16,243 nucleotides of DNA from a virus (Duplodnaviria > Heunggongvirae > Uroviricota > Caudoviricetes). The stretch lies in the IMG/VR virus record IMGVR_UViG_3300027708_003081; one strand, written 5' to 3'. Below, piece after piece: positions 661 to 15,032 of the stretch. Numbering within the stretch: the first letter of the stretch is position 1; each line of letters begins with the position of its first letter. The notes beneath the pieces are model-generated. The model had not been told where the DNA came from and ran no database searches. It saw nothing but the letters and a program-made list of their open reading frames with translations. The position numbers were made by a program, and so were the translations under genes.

Positions 661-690
661 AGCCCCTCCCCATAAAGGAGGGTTTTTTAT
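661..690 (+). terminator. Rho-independent terminator
   Basis: Stem CCCTCC (664-669) / GGAGGG (677-682), 7-nt loop CCATAAA, then TTTTTT (683-688) and a further T-rich run. Starts 6 nt after the stop at 655. Confidence 0.85.
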
Positions 691-749: not shown

Positions 750-1865
750 ATGAAAAACTTATCTAAAGAAGAGCTATTAAGCCGGCTTGAAGGCATTAAT
801 AGAAGTAATGCCATTATCTATTTTGACCTAGGAGGTATCATTTTGGGTGTAAACGACATTTTTTTGTTGGCGATGGGGTATAAAGTTGATGAATATAATG
901 AACTTATTGGTAAGCACCATAGCATCTTTGTATGTAAAGATTATGCAAAGTCATCGGAGTATGAAAAGTTTTGGGACATTTTAAGAAGTGGTAAGTATTA
1001 TTCAGGGGAATTTGAAAGAATAAAAAAAGATGGTACCCTTATCAACTTACAAGCAACATACAATCCTATTTTTGATGATAGTGGTAAGATTACTAAAATA
1101 ATGAAAGTCGCTACTGACATTACGGCAATTGCGAATAGTAAAAAACAATTAGAAGCGATTAACAGAAGTACGGCAAGTATTACTTTTAATGTTGATGGAT
1201 TCATTTTAGATGCGAACACTCTGTTTTTACAAGCGATGGGATATAAACCCAACGAAAAAAATCAAATAGTTGGGAGACACCATAGTATCTTTGTTAGTTA
1301 TGAGTATTCAAAGTCAGATGAATATAAAATATTTTGGGATACCTTAAGAAGTGGTAAGTTTTTTGAAGGTGTGGTAGAAAGAAAAAAAGTGGATGGTAGT
1401 GTTATTTATTTACAAGCCACGTATAATCCCATTTTAGATAGTAAAGGAAATGTTATAAGTGTAATTAAAATTGCTACTGATATAACTGAAACTGTTATCA
1501 GTAAAAATAAAATAGAAACACTAACAAAAGACTTGAAATTAGAGTTAGATAATTCAAAGAAACTTAAAGATTCCATAGAAATAGAAAAGAATGCGGCTTT
1601 GAATGACTTGGATGTGGTGATGAAAAAGAGTCAAAGTGAGTTAATAAAAATAATTGTTAAATGTGCTTTATCGGTAATTATAGGAGTAGGTCTTGTAACA
1701 ACTTCGCTTTATTGGATGGCTATTGTGATGGGAAAGGAAACACAAATTATTGGCTCAACTTGGAGTAATATGTTTAGTGTACTTCTAACAAACGCATTTT
1801 CAATTGTAGGAACAATTATGGGTATTAAATATGCTACTCAAGAAAATGGTAAAGAAAAAAAATAA
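750..1865 (+). CDS. Tandem PAS-PAS sensor protein with coiled coil and two C-terminal transmembrane helices; no output domain
   Basis: Two PAS/PAC repeats (INRS..I.F...G.IL..N..FL.AMGY...GxHHSIFV...EY..FWD.LRSG....G..ER.K.DG....LQATYNPI.D..G......K.ATDIT) resembling the PAS domains of BdlA-type soluble chemoreceptors. Then a K/E/L-rich helix (aa ~247-300), hydrophobic segments at aa ~301-328 and ~333-359, and a basic tail (KEKK). Confidence 0.9.
   Translation: MKNLSKEELLSRLEGINRSNAIIYFDLGGIILGVNDIFLLAMGYKVDEYNELIGKHHSIFVCKDYAKSSEYEKFWDILRSGKYYSGEFERIKKDGTLINLQATYNPIFDDSGKITKIMKVATDITAIANSKKQLEAINRSTASITFNVDGFILDANTLFLQAMGYKPNEKNQIVGRHHSIFVSYEYSKSDEYKIFWDTLRSGKFFEGVVERKKVDGSVIYLQATYNPILDSKGNVISVIKIATDITETVISKNKIETLTKDLKLELDNSKKLKDSIEIEKNAALNDLDVVMKKSQSELIKIIVKCALSVIIGVGLVTTSLYWMAIVMGKETQIIGSTWSNMFSVLLTNAFSIVGTIMGIKYATQENGKEKK
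786..1511 (+). repeat. Intragenic tandem duplication, 363-bp unit (two PAS domains)
   Basis: Matching blocks at a constant 363-nt offset: GCGATGGG(G/A)TATAAA 870/1233; CATAG(C/T)ATCTTTGT 918/1281; TTAAGAAGTGGTAAG 981/1344 (15/15 identical). Confidence 0.85.
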
Positions 1866-1867
1866 AA

Positions 1868-1896
1868 TTGACTTAACACTCATTTAAAACTATACT
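1868..1896 (+). promoter_or_regulatory. Canonical sigma70-type promoter
   Basis: -35 TTGACT (1868-1873), exactly 17-nt spacer, -10 TATACT (1891-1896). Lies in the intergenic gap upstream of the exonuclease gene. Confidence 0.8.
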
Positions 1897-5120: not shown

Positions 5121-6980
5121 ATGGAAATTTCAAACAGAATACTATCGGAGATAACGGTGCATATGAAATATGCAAAGTATTTGCCGGAGTTAAAAAGAAG
5201 AGAGACTTGGTACGAATTAGTAACAAGAAATATGGAGATGCATATCAAATCGTATCCCCATTTAGAACAAGAGATAAGAGACAATTATCAGTTTGTTTAT
5301 AACAAGCAAGTATTACCGTCTATGAGGTCAATGCAGTTTGCAGGGAAACCAATTGAGATTTCACCAAACAGAATTTACAACTGTGCATACGCTCCTGTAG
5401 ATGATTGGAGAGTATTTTCAGAGATTATGTTCTTGTTACTTGGTGGAACAGGGGTTGGTTATTCAGTTCAAAAACATCACGTAGATGAATTACCTGAAAT
5501 TAGAAAACCAAATGAAAGAACAAGAAGATGGTTAGTTGCAGATTCAATTGAAGGATGGGCTGACGCAGTTAAAGTATTAGTTAAATCATACTTTTTCGGA
5601 GGTTCAAAAATTGAGTTTGACTTTTCAGACATCAGGGCAAAAGGCGCAAGACTTGTAACATCAGGTGGTAAAGCCCCCGGACCTCAACCACTTAAAGAGT
5701 GTTTGATTAAACTTGAAGGTATATTAGATGCTAAACAAGATGGTGACAGGTTAAGACCAATTGAGGTTCACGATATGGTTTGTCATATTGCTGACGCGGT
5801 ATTGGCAGGAGGGATTCGCAGAGCGGCTCTTATTTCCTTATTCTCGGCAACAGATGATGAGATGATTAGTTGTAAGTCAGGTGCTTGGTGGGAAACAAAC
5901 CCACAAAGAGGAAGAGCAAACAACTCCGCAGCACTTGTAAGACATAAGATTACCAAAGATTACTTTATGGAACTTTGGAAAAGAATTGAAGCGAGTGGAG
6001 CGGGAGAACCTGGAATCTACTTTACAAATGATAAAGATTGGGGAACTAATCCTTGTTGTGAGATTGCACTTCGTCCATTCCAATTTTGTAATCTTTGCGA
6101 GGTGAATGTTTCAAATGTTGTTAATCAAGAAGATTATGAGGCGAGAATCAAAGCTGCAACATTCATCGGAACATTACAAGCGGGATATACTAACTTCCAT
6201 TACTTAAGACCAATTTGGCAAAGAACAACTGAAAAAGATGCGCTTATCGGTGTATCGATGACGGGTATTGGTTCAGGTGCGGTATTAGGTTTGGATATGA
6301 AGACAGGCGCAAAAGTTGTGAAGGCCGAGAATGAAAGAGTCGCGGGGTTATTGGGAATTAACAAAGCGGCAAGAACAACTACAGTTAAACCTGCAGGAAC
6401 TACTTCGTTAACACTTGGAACATCATCAGGTATTCACGCTTGGCATAATGACTATTACATCAGAAGAGTGAGAGTTGGAAAGAATGAAGCAATCTACGGA
6501 TATTTGAAAACCAATCATCCCGAACTTATTGAAGATGAGTACTTCCGTCCACACGACACTGCGGTAATTGGTATTCCACAGAAAGCACCCGAAGGTTCAA
6601 TCTTAAGAAACGAATCACCAATTCAATTATTGGAGAGAGTTAAAAAAGTTCACACAGAATGGATTAAACCAGGACATAGAACAGGAAGTAATTCACATAA
6701 TGTTTCGGCGACTATTTCAGTTAGAGAACACGAATGGCCGGCAGTTGGCGAATGGATGTGGACTGAAAGGGAACACTACAATGGATTATCTGTATTGCCC
6801 TACGATTCTGGAAGTTATAAACAGGCACCCTTTGAGGACTGTACAAAAGAAAAGTATGACGAATTAATGGAAACCTTAAAAGATGTTGATTTATCCAAGA
6901 TAATTGAAATAGATGATGATACAGATTTAAGAGGTGAAGCGGCTTGTGCTGGTGGAGCTTGTGAAATAACATTAGTATAA
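5121..6980 (+). CDS. nrdJ: Class II (adenosylcobalamin-dependent) ribonucleotide reductase, monomeric RTPR-type
   Basis: Motifs RRETW, LPSMRSMQFAG, YNCAY, GGTGVGYS, GGKAPGP, AGGIRRAALI, GEPG, active-site TNPCCEI (thiyl Cys ~aa 312, nt 6054), FCNLCEVN, TTVKPAGT and the C-terminal redox pair ACAGGACEI. No class I beta subunit is adjacent. Confidence 0.93.
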   Translation: MEISNRILSEITVHMKYAKYLPELKRRETWYELVTRNMEMHIKSYPHLEQEIRDNYQFVYNKQVLPSMRSMQFAGKPIEISPNRIYNCAYAPVDDWRVFSEIMFLLLGGTGVGYSVQKHHVDELPEIRKPNERTRRWLVADSIEGWADAVKVLVKSYFFGGSKIEFDFSDIRAKGARLVTSGGKAPGPQPLKECLIKLEGILDAKQDGDRLRPIEVHDMVCHIADAVLAGGIRRAALISLFSATDDEMISCKSGAWWETNPQRGRANNSAALVRHKITKDYFMELWKRIEASGAGEPGIYFTNDKDWGTNPCCEIALRPFQFCNLCEVNVSNVVNQEDYEARIKAATFIGTLQAGYTNFHYLRPIWQRTTEKDALIGVSMTGIGSGAVLGLDMKTGAKVVKAENERVAGLLGINKAARTTTVKPAGTTSLTLGTSSGIHAWHNDYYIRRVRVGKNEAIYGYLKTNHPELIEDEYFRPHDTAVIGIPQKAPEGSILRNESPIQLLERVKKVHTEWIKPGHRTGSNSHNVSATISVREHEWPAVGEWMWTEREHYNGLSVLPYDSGSYKQAPFEDCTKEKYDELMETLKDVDLSKIIEIDDDTDLRGEAACAGGACEITLV

Positions 6981-6983
6981 CCT

Positions 6984-7169
6984 ATGGAAAAAGAGAATAA
7001 AAAAGGGGAGAAGTCACAACTTCTCCCTTCTCATTATTATATGGATGAGACAAAATTAGTTTTTACGGAACAATATCATATTGATAGAGGGTACTGCTGC
7101 GGAAATAATTGTAGACATTGTCCTTATGAACCTAAAGGACAAAAAGGTAACACTACAATAAAAAAATAA
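6984..7169 (+). CDS. Small Cys/His-rich protein, DUF5522-like
   Basis: LVFTEQYHIDRGYCCGNNCRHCPY matches my recollection of the DUF5522 signature (H-x-x-RG-x-CCG-x-x-CRHCPY). Starts 3 nt after the nrdJ stop. Confidence 0.8.
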   Translation: MEKENKKGEKSQLLPSHYYMDETKLVFTEQYHIDRGYCCGNNCRHCPYEPKGQKGNTTIKK

Positions 7170-9590: not shown

Positions 9591-12500
9591 ATGGGATATT
9601 CACAAAGAATACGAACAGAGATTGGTATTAATAAAACAATCAACGTTGAGTTAGAACAAGATTTTAATTTTTTAGAGATATTATCTTTAAAGATACAACA
9701 AGAAGATGTTTATGATAGGTCTTGTGCTAATTATGGTGTTGTTGTTGGTAGAATAACCGCAAATAATGGTTATGGCGTACCAAACGCAAAAGTATCTATT
9801 TTTGTACCAATCGATGATGTAGATAAGTTAAATCCTGAAATAACTGCAATTTATCCTTATACCACTACTGATATTAAAAACGAGGATGGTTATAGATATA
9901 ATCTTTTACCATACGAACAATCATATTCAAATCACGTACCTACAGGTACATTTCCCTCAAGAAAAGACGCATTAACAAATAAACTTGCAATAGAGATTTA
10001 CGACAAGTATTATAAGTACACCGTAAAAACAAATGATAGTGGGGATTATATGATTATGGGTGTTCCTCTTGGAGTACAAATAGTGTTTTTAGATTTAGAC
10101 TTATCCGATATTGGGGAGTTTTCATTAACACCACAGGATTTGATAAGAATGGGAAGGGCAACAGACGCTCAAGTGTCGGGTCCACAATTTAAAAGTTCAA
10201 ATAATCTAAATTCTTTACCACAAATTGTTAATATAACTAAATCAATAGATGTATCACCATTATGGGGGGATGAAAATATTTGTAGAATTGCTATTAATAG
10301 GGTGGATTTTGATTTAAGAGACGATGCAAATATTGATATACAACCAACCGCAGTTTTTATGGGGTCTTTAATATCTTCAATAGATACCAAACCTTTAAAA
10401 ATTGCGTGTAAACCATCCACCGAAATGGGTAATCTTTGTAACTTGGTTGCAGGCCCTGGAGAAATATTGGCAATAAGACAAACAATATATGATGACTCAT
10501 ACGGTAGACCAGTACTTGAACAGTATAATTTTAACGGTGGAAATAATGTTATTGACACAGATGGCTCTTGGTTGGTGGATGTCCCTATGAACTTAGAATA
10601 TGTTGTAATAAATGAATTTGGTGAAAGGGTTTTTTCAAACGACCCAAAAGTTGGGATACCAACAAAATCAAAATATAGATTCAAGGTTAAATGGAAACAA
10701 TCAAATGATTTGGCTGCGACAATTAAAAGAGGATATTTCTTGGTCCCAAATATCAGAGAAGGCGGGTGGATATCATCGGTAAATGACCCAAGACTTTTGG
10801 GCACTACAAATCCTACACAGTATGGTGAGTTTATACAATCTTATGCTTTTAGTTTAGATTGGGCCGATTATGGAAATACGGGTACAACAAAGGGTAGACA
10901 AATAATACAAAGCGCGATTGATTGCGAGGATAGATTTTATCAGTTTTCATATAATAAAGTTTATACCGTTTCAGGTATGATTGACCTTTACCACAAAGGA
11001 ACAAATAGAGGTAGATTTATTGGAATAAAACAAATAACGGATAATAGTTGTGATAGCACAAATTATAAATTTCCAACAAATGATGGTACAAGAAATTTTG
11101 ATATGTTATTCAATATTGTAAATTTTTTGATGTCAATCATACTTCTAATAGTTTTACCTTTATTACCAATAATACATATTGTGGCATTTATATGGCCTTT
11201 ATTTAAACTCTTATTTATCTTTGTTTATGGACCAATTGCATATACAATATATTTTCTTTGTAAACTTGTTGATGCAATACCAGGAGTTAAAGCAAATTGT
11301 AAAAAACCAACAAACTTAAAAGACTTATTTAATAAGATAGGAAATCCTTTTAAGAAATTAAAATTCCCAATTCTAACGTATCCTGAATGTGAAATATGTA
11401 GTTGTACTAGTGAAACTTTAGACACAGACCAAGGAGACGCATTTAATTTTGCGACAAGAGCACAACAAAACCAATCAATTTCCTGTACAATTAATACACA
11501 AAGTTCAACAGGTTTCAGTAACATTTATTCTGAAGATTATTGTAAAGATGACCCATTTCTTGGGGGTGTAAATACACCTGCTTGTAGTGGGTTAACAAAT
11601 ACTTGTGGAGATTCAGCTCTTGCAATACAAGAATTGATGGCGGGAAATGGAAATAACGCATACTACAAAAGAACTCCAGCATCAATAATTGGTAATTGTA
11701 ATGGATTACCATATCAGTGGCATTCACAAGATTTGACTTTGGCTGAAAGATTAAATTTATTTAATACGAAGGCGAAGTTTTTTAATTCACAACCGGGAGG
11801 AGGGTGGAATCAAATAAAAGTTTCTGTTAACCCAACACAAAATGCCGGTAAGTTTCACTATGATAATGTGATGGCTTTGTTAATTGATGACGGATGTGCA
11901 GATACATTTACCACAGGTGCGATAATATCATTTAATGGAAGTAAGTTCTCTACAGACCCAAATTTAACTGGTGGAACATTAACCTCTTATTTAAATTCCG
12001 ATGGTGATGAAGTCACTACAACTGCGGTAAAAGGATTACCAAAAAATATAAGTAATATTACTATAAATTGTGCTGACCCAAGTAACCCAAATTCATTTTT
12101 ACCTTCAGTTAATTATATACTTAATCAAAGTTCAGAAATACAACAAGCGTTAATTCCAAATACTAAAGGACAAATATCAGGTATAACTTTCACTTATAAT
12201 GGTACTTCGGCAGTTAATGGAACTTATATAAATGTTAGTGGAGTTACAGATGGTGTGGGTGTTAATGCTACATTTGATATTGTTGTCGTCAATAATGTTC
12301 CTACAAGTGTGACAATCAATAATAGAGGTTATAATTACGAAGAAAGTGAAACCATAACCATTTTGGGTTCGGTAATTGGGGGTCAAGATGGGTATGATGA
12401 TGTTGATATAACAGTAACAAATGTATCATTACAACAATATGAAAATGTGGTGTTCCAAAAATTTCCAACTGACGTTGAATATTTTCAAGTAATTACTGCG

Positions 12501-15032
12501 ATGACGTATGGTAATTTTTCTAATTTAAATCCAACGCCACAAACAGGTCAATATAATACGCCAACAATTACTCAATACGATTCTTTAAGATATAGATTTA
12601 CGGACAATTTTATGACTATGTTTGCGGAGATAAAAGACCCACAAGGGATTTACACTAATTACAGATACGGGACGGATTACAATACTTTTAGACCAATATA
12701 TACGATGCCTGACCAAAAACAATATGTTGTTGCGTTTTTAGTTAGAGGTGTTGACCCTCATTCATCAAGACAACCTATGAATATTGATATTAGTAGGTTA
12801 ATGGGTAAATCATATGGTAGTGTTGTTGTTAGTGGAAATTATAAATTAAATATTCCAATACAACCAGGACTTGTTTTACCAAGACATAACCAAATCACTA
12901 CAAATCAAACAACAAGTCAAGGATACCCAATATTTTTCGATTCATTTTTCTATCAAGTTCCATCAAGTTTTAGGACTTATAGTTCAAATTTAATCGCTAA
13001 TTATTCTGCATTAGACGCAACCGCTTTAACATCATTCCCTGGTACTCCAAATAGACCATTTCAGGTAGATACTACAAGTTCGTTTACAATATTAGATAAT
13101 ACAAAAGTTAACACTATTGGAGGGTATCTTACAGTTGACGCAACAAATAATCTTTTTGCCCAAAGTTCTTATCAAACTGGTAGTTTAGGGCTTATACAAA
13201 CAACTAGCCAATATACTTTTTCTTCTAATGTTTATAGTTTAAATATGAATCCAAATCATTATTTAAATTTGAATGGGGATAAGCAACATAGAGGTTATTA
13301 TCCAAACGAATATATAGAAGGAGGAACATATTTTTACGCTCAAAAAGAAATCCAAAGAGTGTATAATAATATACCCGTAACAAGAATACAAGCCGGTAAC
13401 TTTGTTTATTTTTCACCCATATATCCAACAGGAACAACAACTAATTTTATTGCCGGTACACAAAAGGTTGTAATGAGAACCGATAGGTTACCAAGCTCAA
13501 CTTACAGAAGTGATACTCAAGGAAACAATACATTTGTATTACATCAAAATTTAGGGTTTTCTATTTATGCCTATGATGATAATGGAGTTTCAGCTCCACA
13601 ATATAGTGAACAAACTATTGGATACAATAGTGGAGATAGTATAGATGATGAACCAAGTCAGTTTGAAGAGACTGTTATTAATAGTTTTAGTTGTCAAGGG
13701 TTGGCACCTTTGAGTTGCTACTCTGGTAATGGAGAAAATTTTGGTGTAAAACCTGTGGGAGACCCTTGTTTTGAAAAACCAAGTATAGTTAGGAATGGTT
13801 GTTATGTATTTGTTGATAAACCAATAATAAGATTAGTAAGAGATTTTCAACAGTTAGCAGAATGGAAGGCCAGATTTAAAGTTAATCTTGCGGCTTGCCG
13901 AGGAGTATTTGGACACAATTTTGTAAACAATTGGGTTAATGGAACATTATTTGCATTTCCTATTAAAAATAAAAGATTATTTGGTACTGACCCAACAACA
14001 GGAAGTTTTAATGTACCGTTTAACAAATATTGTAAAGATGTTGTTATGTTACATCCTGTAACAAATAACTTTTTTTATAGGTCGTCTCCCTATAACTATA
14101 GTAGCGGAAAATTTGTTGGATTTACACCAAACAATAAAACACATAGAAATAAATTACAATTACAATTTCCAACAACAATTATGGATTTGGGTCCAAGAGA
14201 TGCGTTTGCAAACGAATTAAGTTGTTCTAGCGATTATTTTGGATACAACATAAATAATATGAAGCAAACAAGTTATCAAGATGTATCTAATATTCTAAAT
14301 TTATTTATAATATCAAGACAAATCAGTTCAACATTTTTGGGTCAATTATTAAGTGCTGGAGACGCATCGGTCGATACTTTTTTTTCAAGGAAAAAAGCAA
14401 GATTTGATGGCGATTATGCTCAAGCAATTTCAGTTAACTCTGAAATAGGTGTAGATGAATTTGATTTTGAAAGTTACGATTATACTACTGGTTCAACAGG
14501 TGGAAATACATTTTATGTTAAAGACAAAACAGTCGGAATCTTTTTTTCATCTGACACACAGATTAGAGATTATATTTCACCTAAAAGGATTATAAGAAAC
14601 GATTCCACTGTCCCTGGTCTATATGATTATCTTTCTGTATTTACTCAAGTGGTACCTATGTATAAATGGAATATAACACAAACTAATACAACAAGTATTT
14701 TTGGTAATCAATATAATGATTGGGCAACAACTAAAGCGGACATACAAGCACAAAAATATCAATCATTAGATAGAGTTGCAGCGTCTTCAAATTATTTTAG
14801 AGGACAAGTTAATATACCATCACAACTTAAGGGGTATATATATAATGTGGCTCCAGCAACTCCACCGTTAACAGGATTTGTTTTTGAAGGTGATAGAGTT
14901 GGAGGACAAACATTAGCAAATGGTTCTAACGTAACTGTAGGAGCACCATTTTATTTTTATTTCGGATTAGTAAGAGGGAATAACGCTCTTGATAAATTTA
15001 ATGTAAAATATTTAGGAGTTGAAACTATATGA
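9591..15032 (+). CDS. Large putative virion/baseplate-associated protein (1813 aa), Cys-rich, with internal hydrophobic hairpin
   Basis: Uninterrupted ORF after the gp25/gp6 genes; N/T/S/G-rich, beta-type composition. N-terminal VVVGRITANNGYGVPNAKVSIF resembles a carboxypeptidase-regulatory/prealbumin-like beta-sandwich. Hydrophobic stretch at aa ~503-557; about 25 Cys. Function is inferred from context only. Confidence 0.7.
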   Translation: MGYSQRIRTEIGINKTINVELEQDFNFLEILSLKIQQEDVYDRSCANYGVVVGRITANNGYGVPNAKVSIFVPIDDVDKLNPEITAIYPYTTTDIKNEDGYRYNLLPYEQSYSNHVPTGTFPSRKDALTNKLAIEIYDKYYKYTVKTNDSGDYMIMGVPLGVQIVFLDLDLSDIGEFSLTPQDLIRMGRATDAQVSGPQFKSSNNLNSLPQIVNITKSIDVSPLWGDENICRIAINRVDFDLRDDANIDIQPTAVFMGSLISSIDTKPLKIACKPSTEMGNLCNLVAGPGEILAIRQTIYDDSYGRPVLEQYNFNGGNNVIDTDGSWLVDVPMNLEYVVINEFGERVFSNDPKVGIPTKSKYRFKVKWKQSNDLAATIKRGYFLVPNIREGGWISSVNDPRLLGTTNPTQYGEFIQSYAFSLDWADYGNTGTTKGRQIIQSAIDCEDRFYQFSYNKVYTVSGMIDLYHKGTNRGRFIGIKQITDNSCDSTNYKFPTNDGTRNFDMLFNIVNFLMSIILLIVLPLLPIIHIVAFIWPLFKLLFIFVYGPIAYTIYFLCKLVDAIPGVKANCKKPTNLKDLFNKIGNPFKKLKFPILTYPECEICSCTSETLDTDQGDAFNFATRAQQNQSISCTINTQSSTGFSNIYSEDYCKDDPFLGGVNTPACSGLTNTCGDSALAIQELMAGNGNNAYYKRTPASIIGNCNGLPYQWHSQDLTLAERLNLFNTKAKFFNSQPGGGWNQIKVSVNPTQNAGKFHYDNVMALLIDDGCADTFTTGAIISFNGSKFSTDPNLTGGTLTSYLNSDGDEVTTTAVKGLPKNISNITINCADPSNPNSFLPSVNYILNQSSEIQQALIPNTKGQISGITFTYNGTSAVNGTYINVSGVTDGVGVNATFDIVVVNNVPTSVTINNRGYNYEESETITILGSVIGGQDGYDDVDITVTNVSLQQYENVVFQKFPTDVEYFQVITAMTYGNFSNLNPTPQTGQYNTPTITQYDSLRYRFTDNFMTMFAEIKDPQGIYTNYRYGTDYNTFRPIYTMPDQKQYVVAFLVRGVDPHSSRQPMNIDISRLMGKSYGSVVVSGNYKLNIPIQPGLVLPRHNQITTNQTTSQGYPIFFDSFFYQVPSSFRTYSSNLIANYSALDATALTSFPGTPNRPFQVDTTSSFTILDNTKVNTIGGYLTVDATNNLFAQSSYQTGSLGLIQTTSQYTFSSNVYSLNMNPNHYLNLNGDKQHRGYYPNEYIEGGTYFYAQKEIQRVYNNIPVTRIQAGNFVYFSPIYPTGTTTNFIAGTQKVVMRTDRLPSSTYRSDTQGNNTFVLHQNLGFSIYAYDDNGVSAPQYSEQTIGYNSGDSIDDEPSQFEETVINSFSCQGLAPLSCYSGNGENFGVKPVGDPCFEKPSIVRNGCYVFVDKPIIRLVRDFQQLAEWKARFKVNLAACRGVFGHNFVNNWVNGTLFAFPIKNKRLFGTDPTTGSFNVPFNKYCKDVVMLHPVTNNFFYRSSPYNYSSGKFVGFTPNNKTHRNKLQLQFPTTIMDLGPRDAFANELSCSSDYFGYNINNMKQTSYQDVSNILNLFIISRQISSTFLGQLLSAGDASVDTFFSRKKARFDGDYAQAISVNSEIGVDEFDFESYDYTTGSTGGNTFYVKDKTVGIFFSSDTQIRDYISPKRIIRNDSTVPGLYDYLSVFTQVVPMYKWNITQTNTTSIFGNQYNDWATTKADIQAQKYQSLDRVAASSNYFRGQVNIPSQLKGYIYNVAPATPPLTGFVFEGDRVGGQTLANGSNVTVGAPFYFYFGLVRGNNALDKFNVKYLGVETI

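Follow-up and report, generated by a model that had tools for sequence, protein, structure and literature searches.

The stretch of DNA analysed here (the window) comprises 16,243 nucleotides of a virus of the Caudoviricetes (IMG/VR record IMGVR_UViG_3300027708_003081), and it carries a gene, P0001, whose 371-residue product joins two PAS sensor domains to a hairpin of two transmembrane (TM) helices. A first-pass annotation made from the letters alone had read this product as two PAS/PAC domains, a coiled coil, two hydrophobic helices and a basic C-terminal tail with no signalling output, and the Pfam matches, the motifs and a structural model all agree with that layout. Pfam returned two PAS domains, PAS_3/PAS_9, at residues 33-120 (E 2e-23) and 144-247 (E 4e-22), scoring 82.7 bits (cut-off 25.6) and 79 bits (cut-off 27), and nothing else; NCBIfam returned the sensory box TIGR00229 alone, at 94.8 bits. 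The motifs quoted at the time are present, as GKHHSIFV (54-61) and EYEKFWDIL (70-78) and again as GRHHSIFV (175-182) and EYKIFWDTL (191-199). Neither Pfam nor NCBIfam gave a match in P0001 to MCPsignal (PF00015), HAMP, HisKA/HATPase, GGDEF or EAL, which upholds the lack of an output domain, and the protein ends 12 residues past the second TM helix (TM2).

The AlphaFold2 model, built on a 60-row alignment with a mean predicted local distance difference test score (pLDDT) of 87.6, consists of an N-cap helix (residues 6-19), two PAS folds, an unbroken helix from 246 to 326, a loop at 327-331 and a last helix at 332-367. The long helix has a pLDDT of about 90 up to residue 290; it is heptad-like to about residue 296 and hydrophobic thereafter, giving TM1, while TM2 lies inside the last helix. 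A continuous helix from the last PAS strand onward is the standard route of PAS output, so the unbroken run from the second PAS domain into TM1 supports coupling of the sensor to the membrane. The short loop between the TM helices was borne out, though the model gives it the five residues MGKET and not the KETQ first proposed. Positive charge prevails just ahead of TM1 (MKKSQSELIK) and in the tail KYATQENGKEKK, and the loop is neutral, which indicates an N-in/C-in topology with cytoplasmic PAS domains; together with a hydrophilic N-terminus that has no signal peptide, this matches what had been expected. The polar face anticipated for TM2 is present as a stripe of S336, N340, S343, T347, S351, G354 and G358, but the amphipathicity is only marginally significant, as 280 of 5000 shuffled sequences reach its hydrophobic moment of 0.85. 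An internal start at M291, which would give an 81-residue holin-like product, was rejected as a family feature because this methionine is not conserved.

P0001 belongs to a broad family. A word-index search gave more than 6,000 matches, the best 120 of which are 78-100% identical and nearly all 365-377 residues long, and 3,406 proteins were obtained when residues 250-371 alone were scored, among them a one-PAS form of about 250 residues that recurs. In an exhaustive search of 50%-identity representatives the C-terminal module (coiled coil and TM hairpin) occurred in three phage clusters only, of 371, 251 and 230 residues. The constancy of length and the restriction of this module to phages argue that P0001 is complete; judged by its sequence it is neither a truncated chemoreceptor nor a pseudogene, and the first reading of it as a whole protein and not a cut-off methyl-accepting chemotaxis protein (MCP) stands, more than 100 clusters at 78-100% identity keeping a length of 365-377 residues. 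That the gene is phage-encoded was likewise confirmed by the phage-type neighbours in the window and by homologues on viral contigs of up to 308 kb with gp32, T4-type portal and terminase genes.

It had also been asked whether the coiled-coil/two-TM module occurs by itself or with other sensors. The latter proved true in the form of a kinase-driven effector of 189-229 residues, described below, which is the sole genuine form without PAS domains; a true stand-alone gene was not found. Apparent stand-alone hits of 81-151 residues turned out to be contig-end fragments (L392), internal starts inside PAS, or products of scaffold gaps (L393). At L393:3076-4000 a gap of 100 N with duplicated flanks splits a full-length homologue and leaves an apparent 126-residue protein, P0370. 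One 77%-identical copy lies on a 3.2-kb contig (L217, CAYOCN010000078.1) filed in a 'Candidatus Saccharibacteria' metagenome-assembled genome, and is probably a mis-binned phage fragment. Look-alikes of the C-terminal module in an atlas belong to unnamed viral clusters, with scores of at most 0.87 that serve as a lead only.

Conservation within the family, assessed over 67 distinct two-PAS proteins, is concentrated in TM2. Columns are on average 85-87% identical in the PAS domains, 80% in the coiled coil and 83% in TM1, against 99.9% over residues 333-359. At residues 333-364 (IIGSTWSNMFSVLLTNAFSIVGTIMGIKYATQ) the 67 homologues hardly differ in amino acids although their codons vary: just three non-synonymous codons were seen (GTT at 333, ACT at 341 and CAT at 364, in one sequence each), pairwise identity at third codon positions is 0.61 here compared with 0.51-0.65 elsewhere in the gene, and the serine at 339 switches codon family between AGT and TCA. 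With synonymous sites free to vary, the invariance of TM2 reflects purifying selection on the protein and not recent recombination or an RNA element. By contrast c1, a small holin-like protein encoded near the gene in its relatives, averages 42% column identity.

The relatives of P0001 are tied to lysis genes. Open reading frames (ORFs) were called and neighbours clustered on two sets of about 80 viral contigs each, the first bearing two-PAS homologues and the second found with a one-PAS query. Across 82 loci with homologues 64-100% identical, an endolysin gene adjoins the PAS gene in 40, lies at most two genes away in 59 and at most four genes away in 67, although these loci come from related phages and cannot be counted as separate events. 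Between lineages the order of the genes and the kind of endolysin change greatly, and the linkage persists. Four unrelated endolysin types were recognised near the gene with Pfam and PHROGs: GH19 (phrog_181), GH24 phage lysozyme (phrog_7), Peptidase_M15_3 (phrog_894) and a PG_binding_1 protein related to endolysin PHROGs. None of the cassettes' endolysins has a signal-anchor. Further neighbours include two Phage_holin_4_1 clusters, c1 (about 85 residues with two TM helices and a charged tail) and small TM proteins, and alongside them stand spanin-like pairs of an N-terminal-TM/coiled-coil protein and a lipoprotein, resembling i- and o-spanins. The one-PAS genes, with products of 248-250 residues, lie directly upstream of M15 or GH19 endolysins.

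Two large genomes show the arrangement entire. In G006 (123 kb with terminal repeats, CheckV completeness 100%) as in G004 (160 kb, 95%), every recognisable lysis gene is present as one copy, and all sit together in one cassette along with the PAS gene. The order in G006 is spanin-like, spanin-like, PAS gene, c1, GH24 and M15, with overlapping reading frames, and in G004 it is c1, PAS gene, PG_binding endolysin, Phage_holin_4_1 and a TM protein.

The PAS gene is an accessory of these cassettes, dispensable in syntenic ones. No homologue of it or of the kinase lies within 5 kb in 70 of the 80 contigs that bear c1. The comparison is most direct between contig L306, where c1, c36, a spanin-like pair, GH19 and TM12 are found, and contig L297, which reads GH19, c1, c36, PAS gene, spanin-like pair and TM12; the PAS gene is plainly present in one and absent from the other between two shared genes. 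Every cassette seen has at least one other holin candidate, be it c1, Phage_holin_4_1 or another small multi-TM protein. Absence from syntenic cassettes that retain other holin candidates makes a regulator, an antiholin or a trigger, likelier than the holin itself. The first-pass proposal of a holin-like lysis timer has contextual support from relatives as to timing, whereas the part that would make P0001 the holin has become less likely.

A second architecture separates the sensor from the membrane module. In contig L154 the genes run in the order 474-residue PAS-PAS-HATPase_c protein, 143-residue receiver-only regulator, 194-residue coiled-coil/two-TM protein, small TM gene and GH19 endolysin (HATPase_c E 6.5e-12; Response_reg E 2.3e-9), and the first 260 residues of the kinase are 55% identical to P0001. 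The split module occupies L154:6001-8448 and recurs in L394-L473, for example at L411:4326-6700. Scanning with the kinase half gave 80 contigs, with kinase, receiver and effector in that order in 75; an endolysin lies within about 2 kb in 60 of those 75, and in 24 of them within 50 bp. The effectors (189-229 residues) differ by coiled-coil insertions and keep ...WSN.FGILLTNAFSIVGTIMG.KYA, so that TM2 is common to the split and the fused types. A model of the split effector has a small N-terminal cap, one helix (37-150) and the hairpin, and is too simple for a fold search. Neither kinase nor receiver was found in the near-complete genomes of the fused type or in the window. Its domain content makes the split module a two-component system that is encoded by the phage and has no DNA-binding output. 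This pattern of fusion and fission identifies the PAS pair as input and the coiled-coil/two-TM part as an autonomous output, the two being functionally coupled, and with no output domain on the receiver control would pass from protein to protein.

With architecture, conservation, cassette linkage in relatives, a split form and dispensability all observed, we favour as moderately probable, on sequence and context, that the P0001 family is a sensor-coupled regulator of lysis timing, acting as an antiholin-like factor or as a trigger. The tandem PAS domains would read a cytoplasmic cue such as redox, oxygen, energy state or a metabolite, in a dimer held by the coiled coil. By moving the coiled coil and TM1 against TM2, the cue would alter how the invariant TM2 acts in the membrane. 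TM2 might restrain the cassette's holin until the cue changes, as an antiholin would, or it might depolarise the membrane and thereby fire the holin. In the sister architecture the same effector, without PAS domains, would be driven by the neighbouring PAS-PAS-histidine kinase and receiver-only regulator. More tentatively, it is quite possible that a large group of uncultured T4-like phages carries a sensory lysis clock, in which an invariant effector is wired to tandem PAS domains directly or through a kinase and receiver, and with which a virulent phage would bring lysis forward or put it off according to redox, oxygen or energy.

P0001 might instead itself be a ligand-gated holin or pinholin, TM2 forming the hole, TM1 and the coiled coil restraining it and the PAS domains releasing it. 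The topology is that of class II holins (two TM helices, N-in/C-in, charged C-terminal tail), the polar stripe and invariance of TM2 would suit a gated holin, and the PAS gene often lies just ahead of the endolysin gene, where a holin gene classically stands. We nevertheless consider this unlikely, given that all cassettes examined hold other holin candidates, that syntenic cassettes work without the PAS gene, that a small pinhole alone would not release endolysins without a signal-anchor, and that holins are normally very variable while this TM2 is not. TM helices with a charged tail are what a holin is expected to have, and P0001 has them, yet a protein of 371 residues with so big a cytoplasmic domain is atypical. 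The invariance of TM2 across phages with differing holins and endolysins is in turn the best argument for the view that the hairpin targets a conserved host membrane protein in a non-lysis role, such as superinfection exclusion, control of respiration or transport, or counter-defence; proximity to lysis genes would then only mirror a shared late membrane-protein neighbourhood. The accessory nature of the gene and its placement away from lysis genes in the window's lineage fit this view as well. Against it, endolysin linkage survives reshuffling in three architectures (two-PAS, one-PAS and split), and no match to known defence or exclusion families was found, P0001 having no PADLOC match among defence-system models at E up to 0.1. 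We rate it as slightly less probable still than a gated holin.

A fragment of an Aer- or BdlA-type chemoreceptor, serving as a decoy, as a dominant-negative of host PAS receptors or being simply a truncated MCP, appears very improbable. Many homologues are labelled 'methyl-accepting chemotaxis protein' by the Joint Genome Institute (JGI), the PAS pair is 40-48% identical to cellular tandem PAS domains, and in one relative, P0213, an MCP-like segment follows. P0001 is of the same PAS subfamily as Aer and BdlA and shares with Aer the order of PAS domain, linker of about 50 residues and hairpin with a very short outside loop; by BLASTP, residues 145-365 (the second PAS domain, linker and hairpin) align collinearly with residues 23-226 of Aer, but the similarity is confined to the PAS domain. 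Where Aer is built as PAS-F1-hairpin-HAMP-MCP, P0001 has no HAMP or MCPsignal domain, its linker and hairpin are dissimilar, and an asparagine of the G-beta strand is replaced by arginine. Length is fixed at 371 residues across hundreds of clusters, and Bacteroidota, a possible host on weak grounds given below, are generally without flagellar chemotaxis. The decoy for host PAS receptors raised in the first-pass annotation found no support; neither cassette linkage nor the kinase/receiver version has a place in it.

Several points weigh against the favoured reading of a lysis-timing regulator, beyond the relatedness of the 82 loci. The suggestion of a lysis timer has strong support from the cassettes of relatives, but the window's own 16 kb contain no lysis gene, and none was recognisable in a 134-kb fragment of the same lineage (G005, 46% complete). 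In this close lineage (L002-L007, L111, L112, L119 and L149) the PAS gene adjoins exonuclease, helicase and ribonucleotide reductase (RNR) genes. Searches of Pfam, PHROG and NCBIfam linked the C-terminal module to no holin or antiholin family, and profile-profile comparison of the hairpin with c1 gave no homology. With holin candidates as variable as they are, the invariant TM2 is at least as compatible with a conserved target in the host as with binding to a holin. It should also be considered that we infer the gating by a signal, the direction of the effect, the partner and a shared job for the window's copy. For that copy a lysis role would be carried over from homologues of 64-80% identity. 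A complex prediction for the C-terminal module with the c1 of the same phage (score 0.00, fold confidence below 50) speaks neither way on binding. The lysis genes of T4 lie scattered, so placement on the replication side is compatible with a lysis role. A 90%-identical homologue sits in the window's gene order on a 308-kb contig, which has gp32 as well; there the PAS gene is followed by a small TM protein of a family otherwise found in lysis cassettes, which is not the case in the window.

The PAS domains were compared with those of known sensors. The nearest solved structures by sequence are the FAD-binding tandem PAS of MmoS (E 3e-9) and the Aer PAS domain 8dik (E 1e-5), and a Foldseek search with the model placed MmoS on top (E 1.6e-17), followed by DosP, NifL, LOV-PAS and FixL. 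All of these are redox, oxygen or light sensors. The P0001 PAS domains have no LOV cysteine. The G-beta strand asparagine that binds flavin in PAS domains of the Aer/MmoS type aligns with an invariant arginine in P0001. Residues H57/H178, Y71/Y192, W75/W196, R90/R211, Y104/Y225 and K119/K240 are invariant across phage and cellular homologues. A search of 50%-identity representatives found the PAS pair to be 40-48% identical to tandem PAS units of large cellular sensors, and these best cellular matches are spread over Pseudomonadota, Planctomycetota and other phyla and allow no host assignment. On a human-faecal 'Bacteriophage sp.' contig (MT836939.1, 6586-7308) there is a PAS pair 44.5% identical to residues 13-255, without the C-terminal module, which suggests from sequence comparison that the PAS pair moves among other phage groups as well.

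Among known systems the nearest functional analogies are T4 lysis inhibition and LytSR-LrgAB. In T4, RI and RIII act on holin T, so that accessory phage proteins adjust the triggering of a holin to a signal, and T4-like lysis genes can be scattered as in the window. However, RI has a small soluble domain that does its sensing in the periplasm, and RIII is small and cytoplasmic; neither has a PAS domain, coiled coil or two-TM hairpin, and no sequence relation of P0001 to RI or RIII was found. The LytSR-LrgAB/CidAB systems resemble the split form in tying a sensor kinase and response regulator to holin-like membrane proteins, but LytR binds DNA and acts on transcription, whereas the receiver of the split form has no output domain and is phage-encoded, beside an endolysin. 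Class II holins and pinholins (S68 of phage 21, and the lambdoid S proteins with their dual-start antiholins) share with P0001 two TM helices, N-in/C-in topology, a charged tail and a polar-faced second helix, and, in relatives of the window, a gene adjoining the endolysin. P0001 differs from them in having about 295 cytoplasmic residues ahead of the hairpin, no holin family match, an invariant TM2 and a dispensable gene. The SAVED/2TM effectors of CBASS and the cNMP-TM effectors of Pycsar also join a ligand-binding domain straight to membrane-acting TM helices; they belong to host defence and bind cyclic nucleotides, whereas P0001 is phage-encoded, has a PAS input and stands in a cassette context. 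The one phage PAS sensor known to be linked with lysis is VqmA of vibriophage VP882, a receptor that triggers lysis, and so likewise couples a small-molecule cue to a lysis decision (PMC8284805). It is, however, a soluble PAS-HTH (helix-turn-helix) transcription factor working in the lysogeny-lysis switch of a temperate phage, while P0001 is a membrane protein without a DNA-binding domain, from T4-like phages.

No PAS-fused lysis protein and no phage kinase/receiver pair in a lysis cassette was found in the full-text collection searched, which is itself incomplete. New here are the quantified cassette linkage, the single cassettes that include the gene, the split version, the protein-level constraint on TM2 and the accessory status. 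Signal-dependent control of lysis is already known, and to our knowledge T4 lysis inhibition, a response to superinfection sensed in the periplasm, is its only well-understood case; P0001 has a fair chance of being the first sensor-gated lysis switch. Lysis timing sets phage fitness. If such a sensory lysis clock exists, no earlier lysis protein would have been gated by a sensor domain, and no earlier phage two-component system would have worked on the lysis machinery through protein contact; the phage would read the physiological state of its host from the cytoplasm to choose the time of bursting, by a route unlike that of T4. More than 3,400 protein clusters carry the C-terminal module, three architectures mark which part is input and which is output, and the invariant helix offers a sharp target for mutagenesis. 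If this is confirmed, the family would also offer a small natural switch, running from sensor to membrane, with which lysis could be engineered to be controllable.

Features of the PAS-hairpin gene and its flanks are collected in Table 1. The terminator-like hairpin ahead of the gene and the promoter behind it suggest that the PAS gene forms its own transcription unit.

Table 1. Features at the P0001 locus, in window positions.
Feature	Position	Strand	Basis
Intrinsic-terminator-like hairpin and T-run, closing the upstream unit	664..682	+	6-8 bp G+C stem, then TTTTTTATTT
PAS-hairpin gene P0001, whole (ATG start, 371 aa)	750..1865	+	ORF, Pfam, homologue lengths, model
PAS domain 1 (aa 21-123), with N-cap helix aa 6-19 ahead	810..1118	+	Pfam PAS_3 33-120; model DSSP
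PAS domain 2 (aa 142-244)	1173..1481	+	Pfam PAS_9 144-247; model; Aer PAS 8dik match
Heptad-like coiled-coil/signalling helix (aa 246-296), running on into TM1	1485..1637	+	Model; hydrophobic pattern
TM1 (aa 297-326), varying among homologues	1638..1727	+	Model, alignment, hydrophobicity
Short outside loop (aa 327-331, MGKET)	1728..1742	+	Model
TM2 and juxtamembrane stretch (aa 332-364)	1743..1841	+	Alignment, codon analysis
Charged, variable C-terminal tail (aa 365-371)	1842..1862	+	Sequence, alignment
Sigma-70-like promoter TTGACT-17-TATACT right behind the stop codon, serving the exonuclease gene	1868..1896	+	Sequence

The window has a G+C content of about 30%, and its other genes encode a 5'-3' exonuclease, a DnaB-like helicase, a class II RNR, a DUF5522 protein, gp25-like and baseplate-J-like proteins and a 1813-residue ORF. 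On the upstream side the window's lineage has either small unrelated ORFs or an HNH endonuclease with a RecA/UvsX-like gene. A gene for an HNH-type endonuclease of about 200 residues lies immediately 5' of the PAS gene in L002 (L002:9288-9905), L004, L039 and L041; in the window two unrelated ORFs (61-318 and 296-655) replace it, a local mosaic junction. PHROGs gave no match for P0001.

No Shine-Dalgarno-like sequence was seen ahead of the PAS gene (720-750) or at most other gene starts in the window. The starts of the PAS, helicase, gp25 and giant-ORF genes are preceded, at a distance of 4-35 nt, by a TATTTAT(T/A) motif, which was rejected as a timing signal, its association with the PAS gene or lysis genes across related loci being inconsistent. 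A gene for a 749-residue TonB-dependent-receptor-like outer membrane protein (Plug + OMP_b-brl_3), uncommon as an auxiliary gene, lies at L297:7860-10109, just after the lysis cassette, and also in L009, L010, L012 and L018. The missing Shine-Dalgarno sequences and this phage TonB-type gene may hint, weakly, at a Bacteroidota host.

Directly after the baseplate genes the 1813-residue ORF occupies 9591-15032, and an open-ended ORF of at least 408 residues begins at 15019; both are probably tail-fibre or baseplate-associated giants. At 5121-7169 the B12-dependent class II RNR carries an RNR-II insertion domain and is followed by the 61-residue DUF5522 protein, a pair that is kept on the 308-kb relative.

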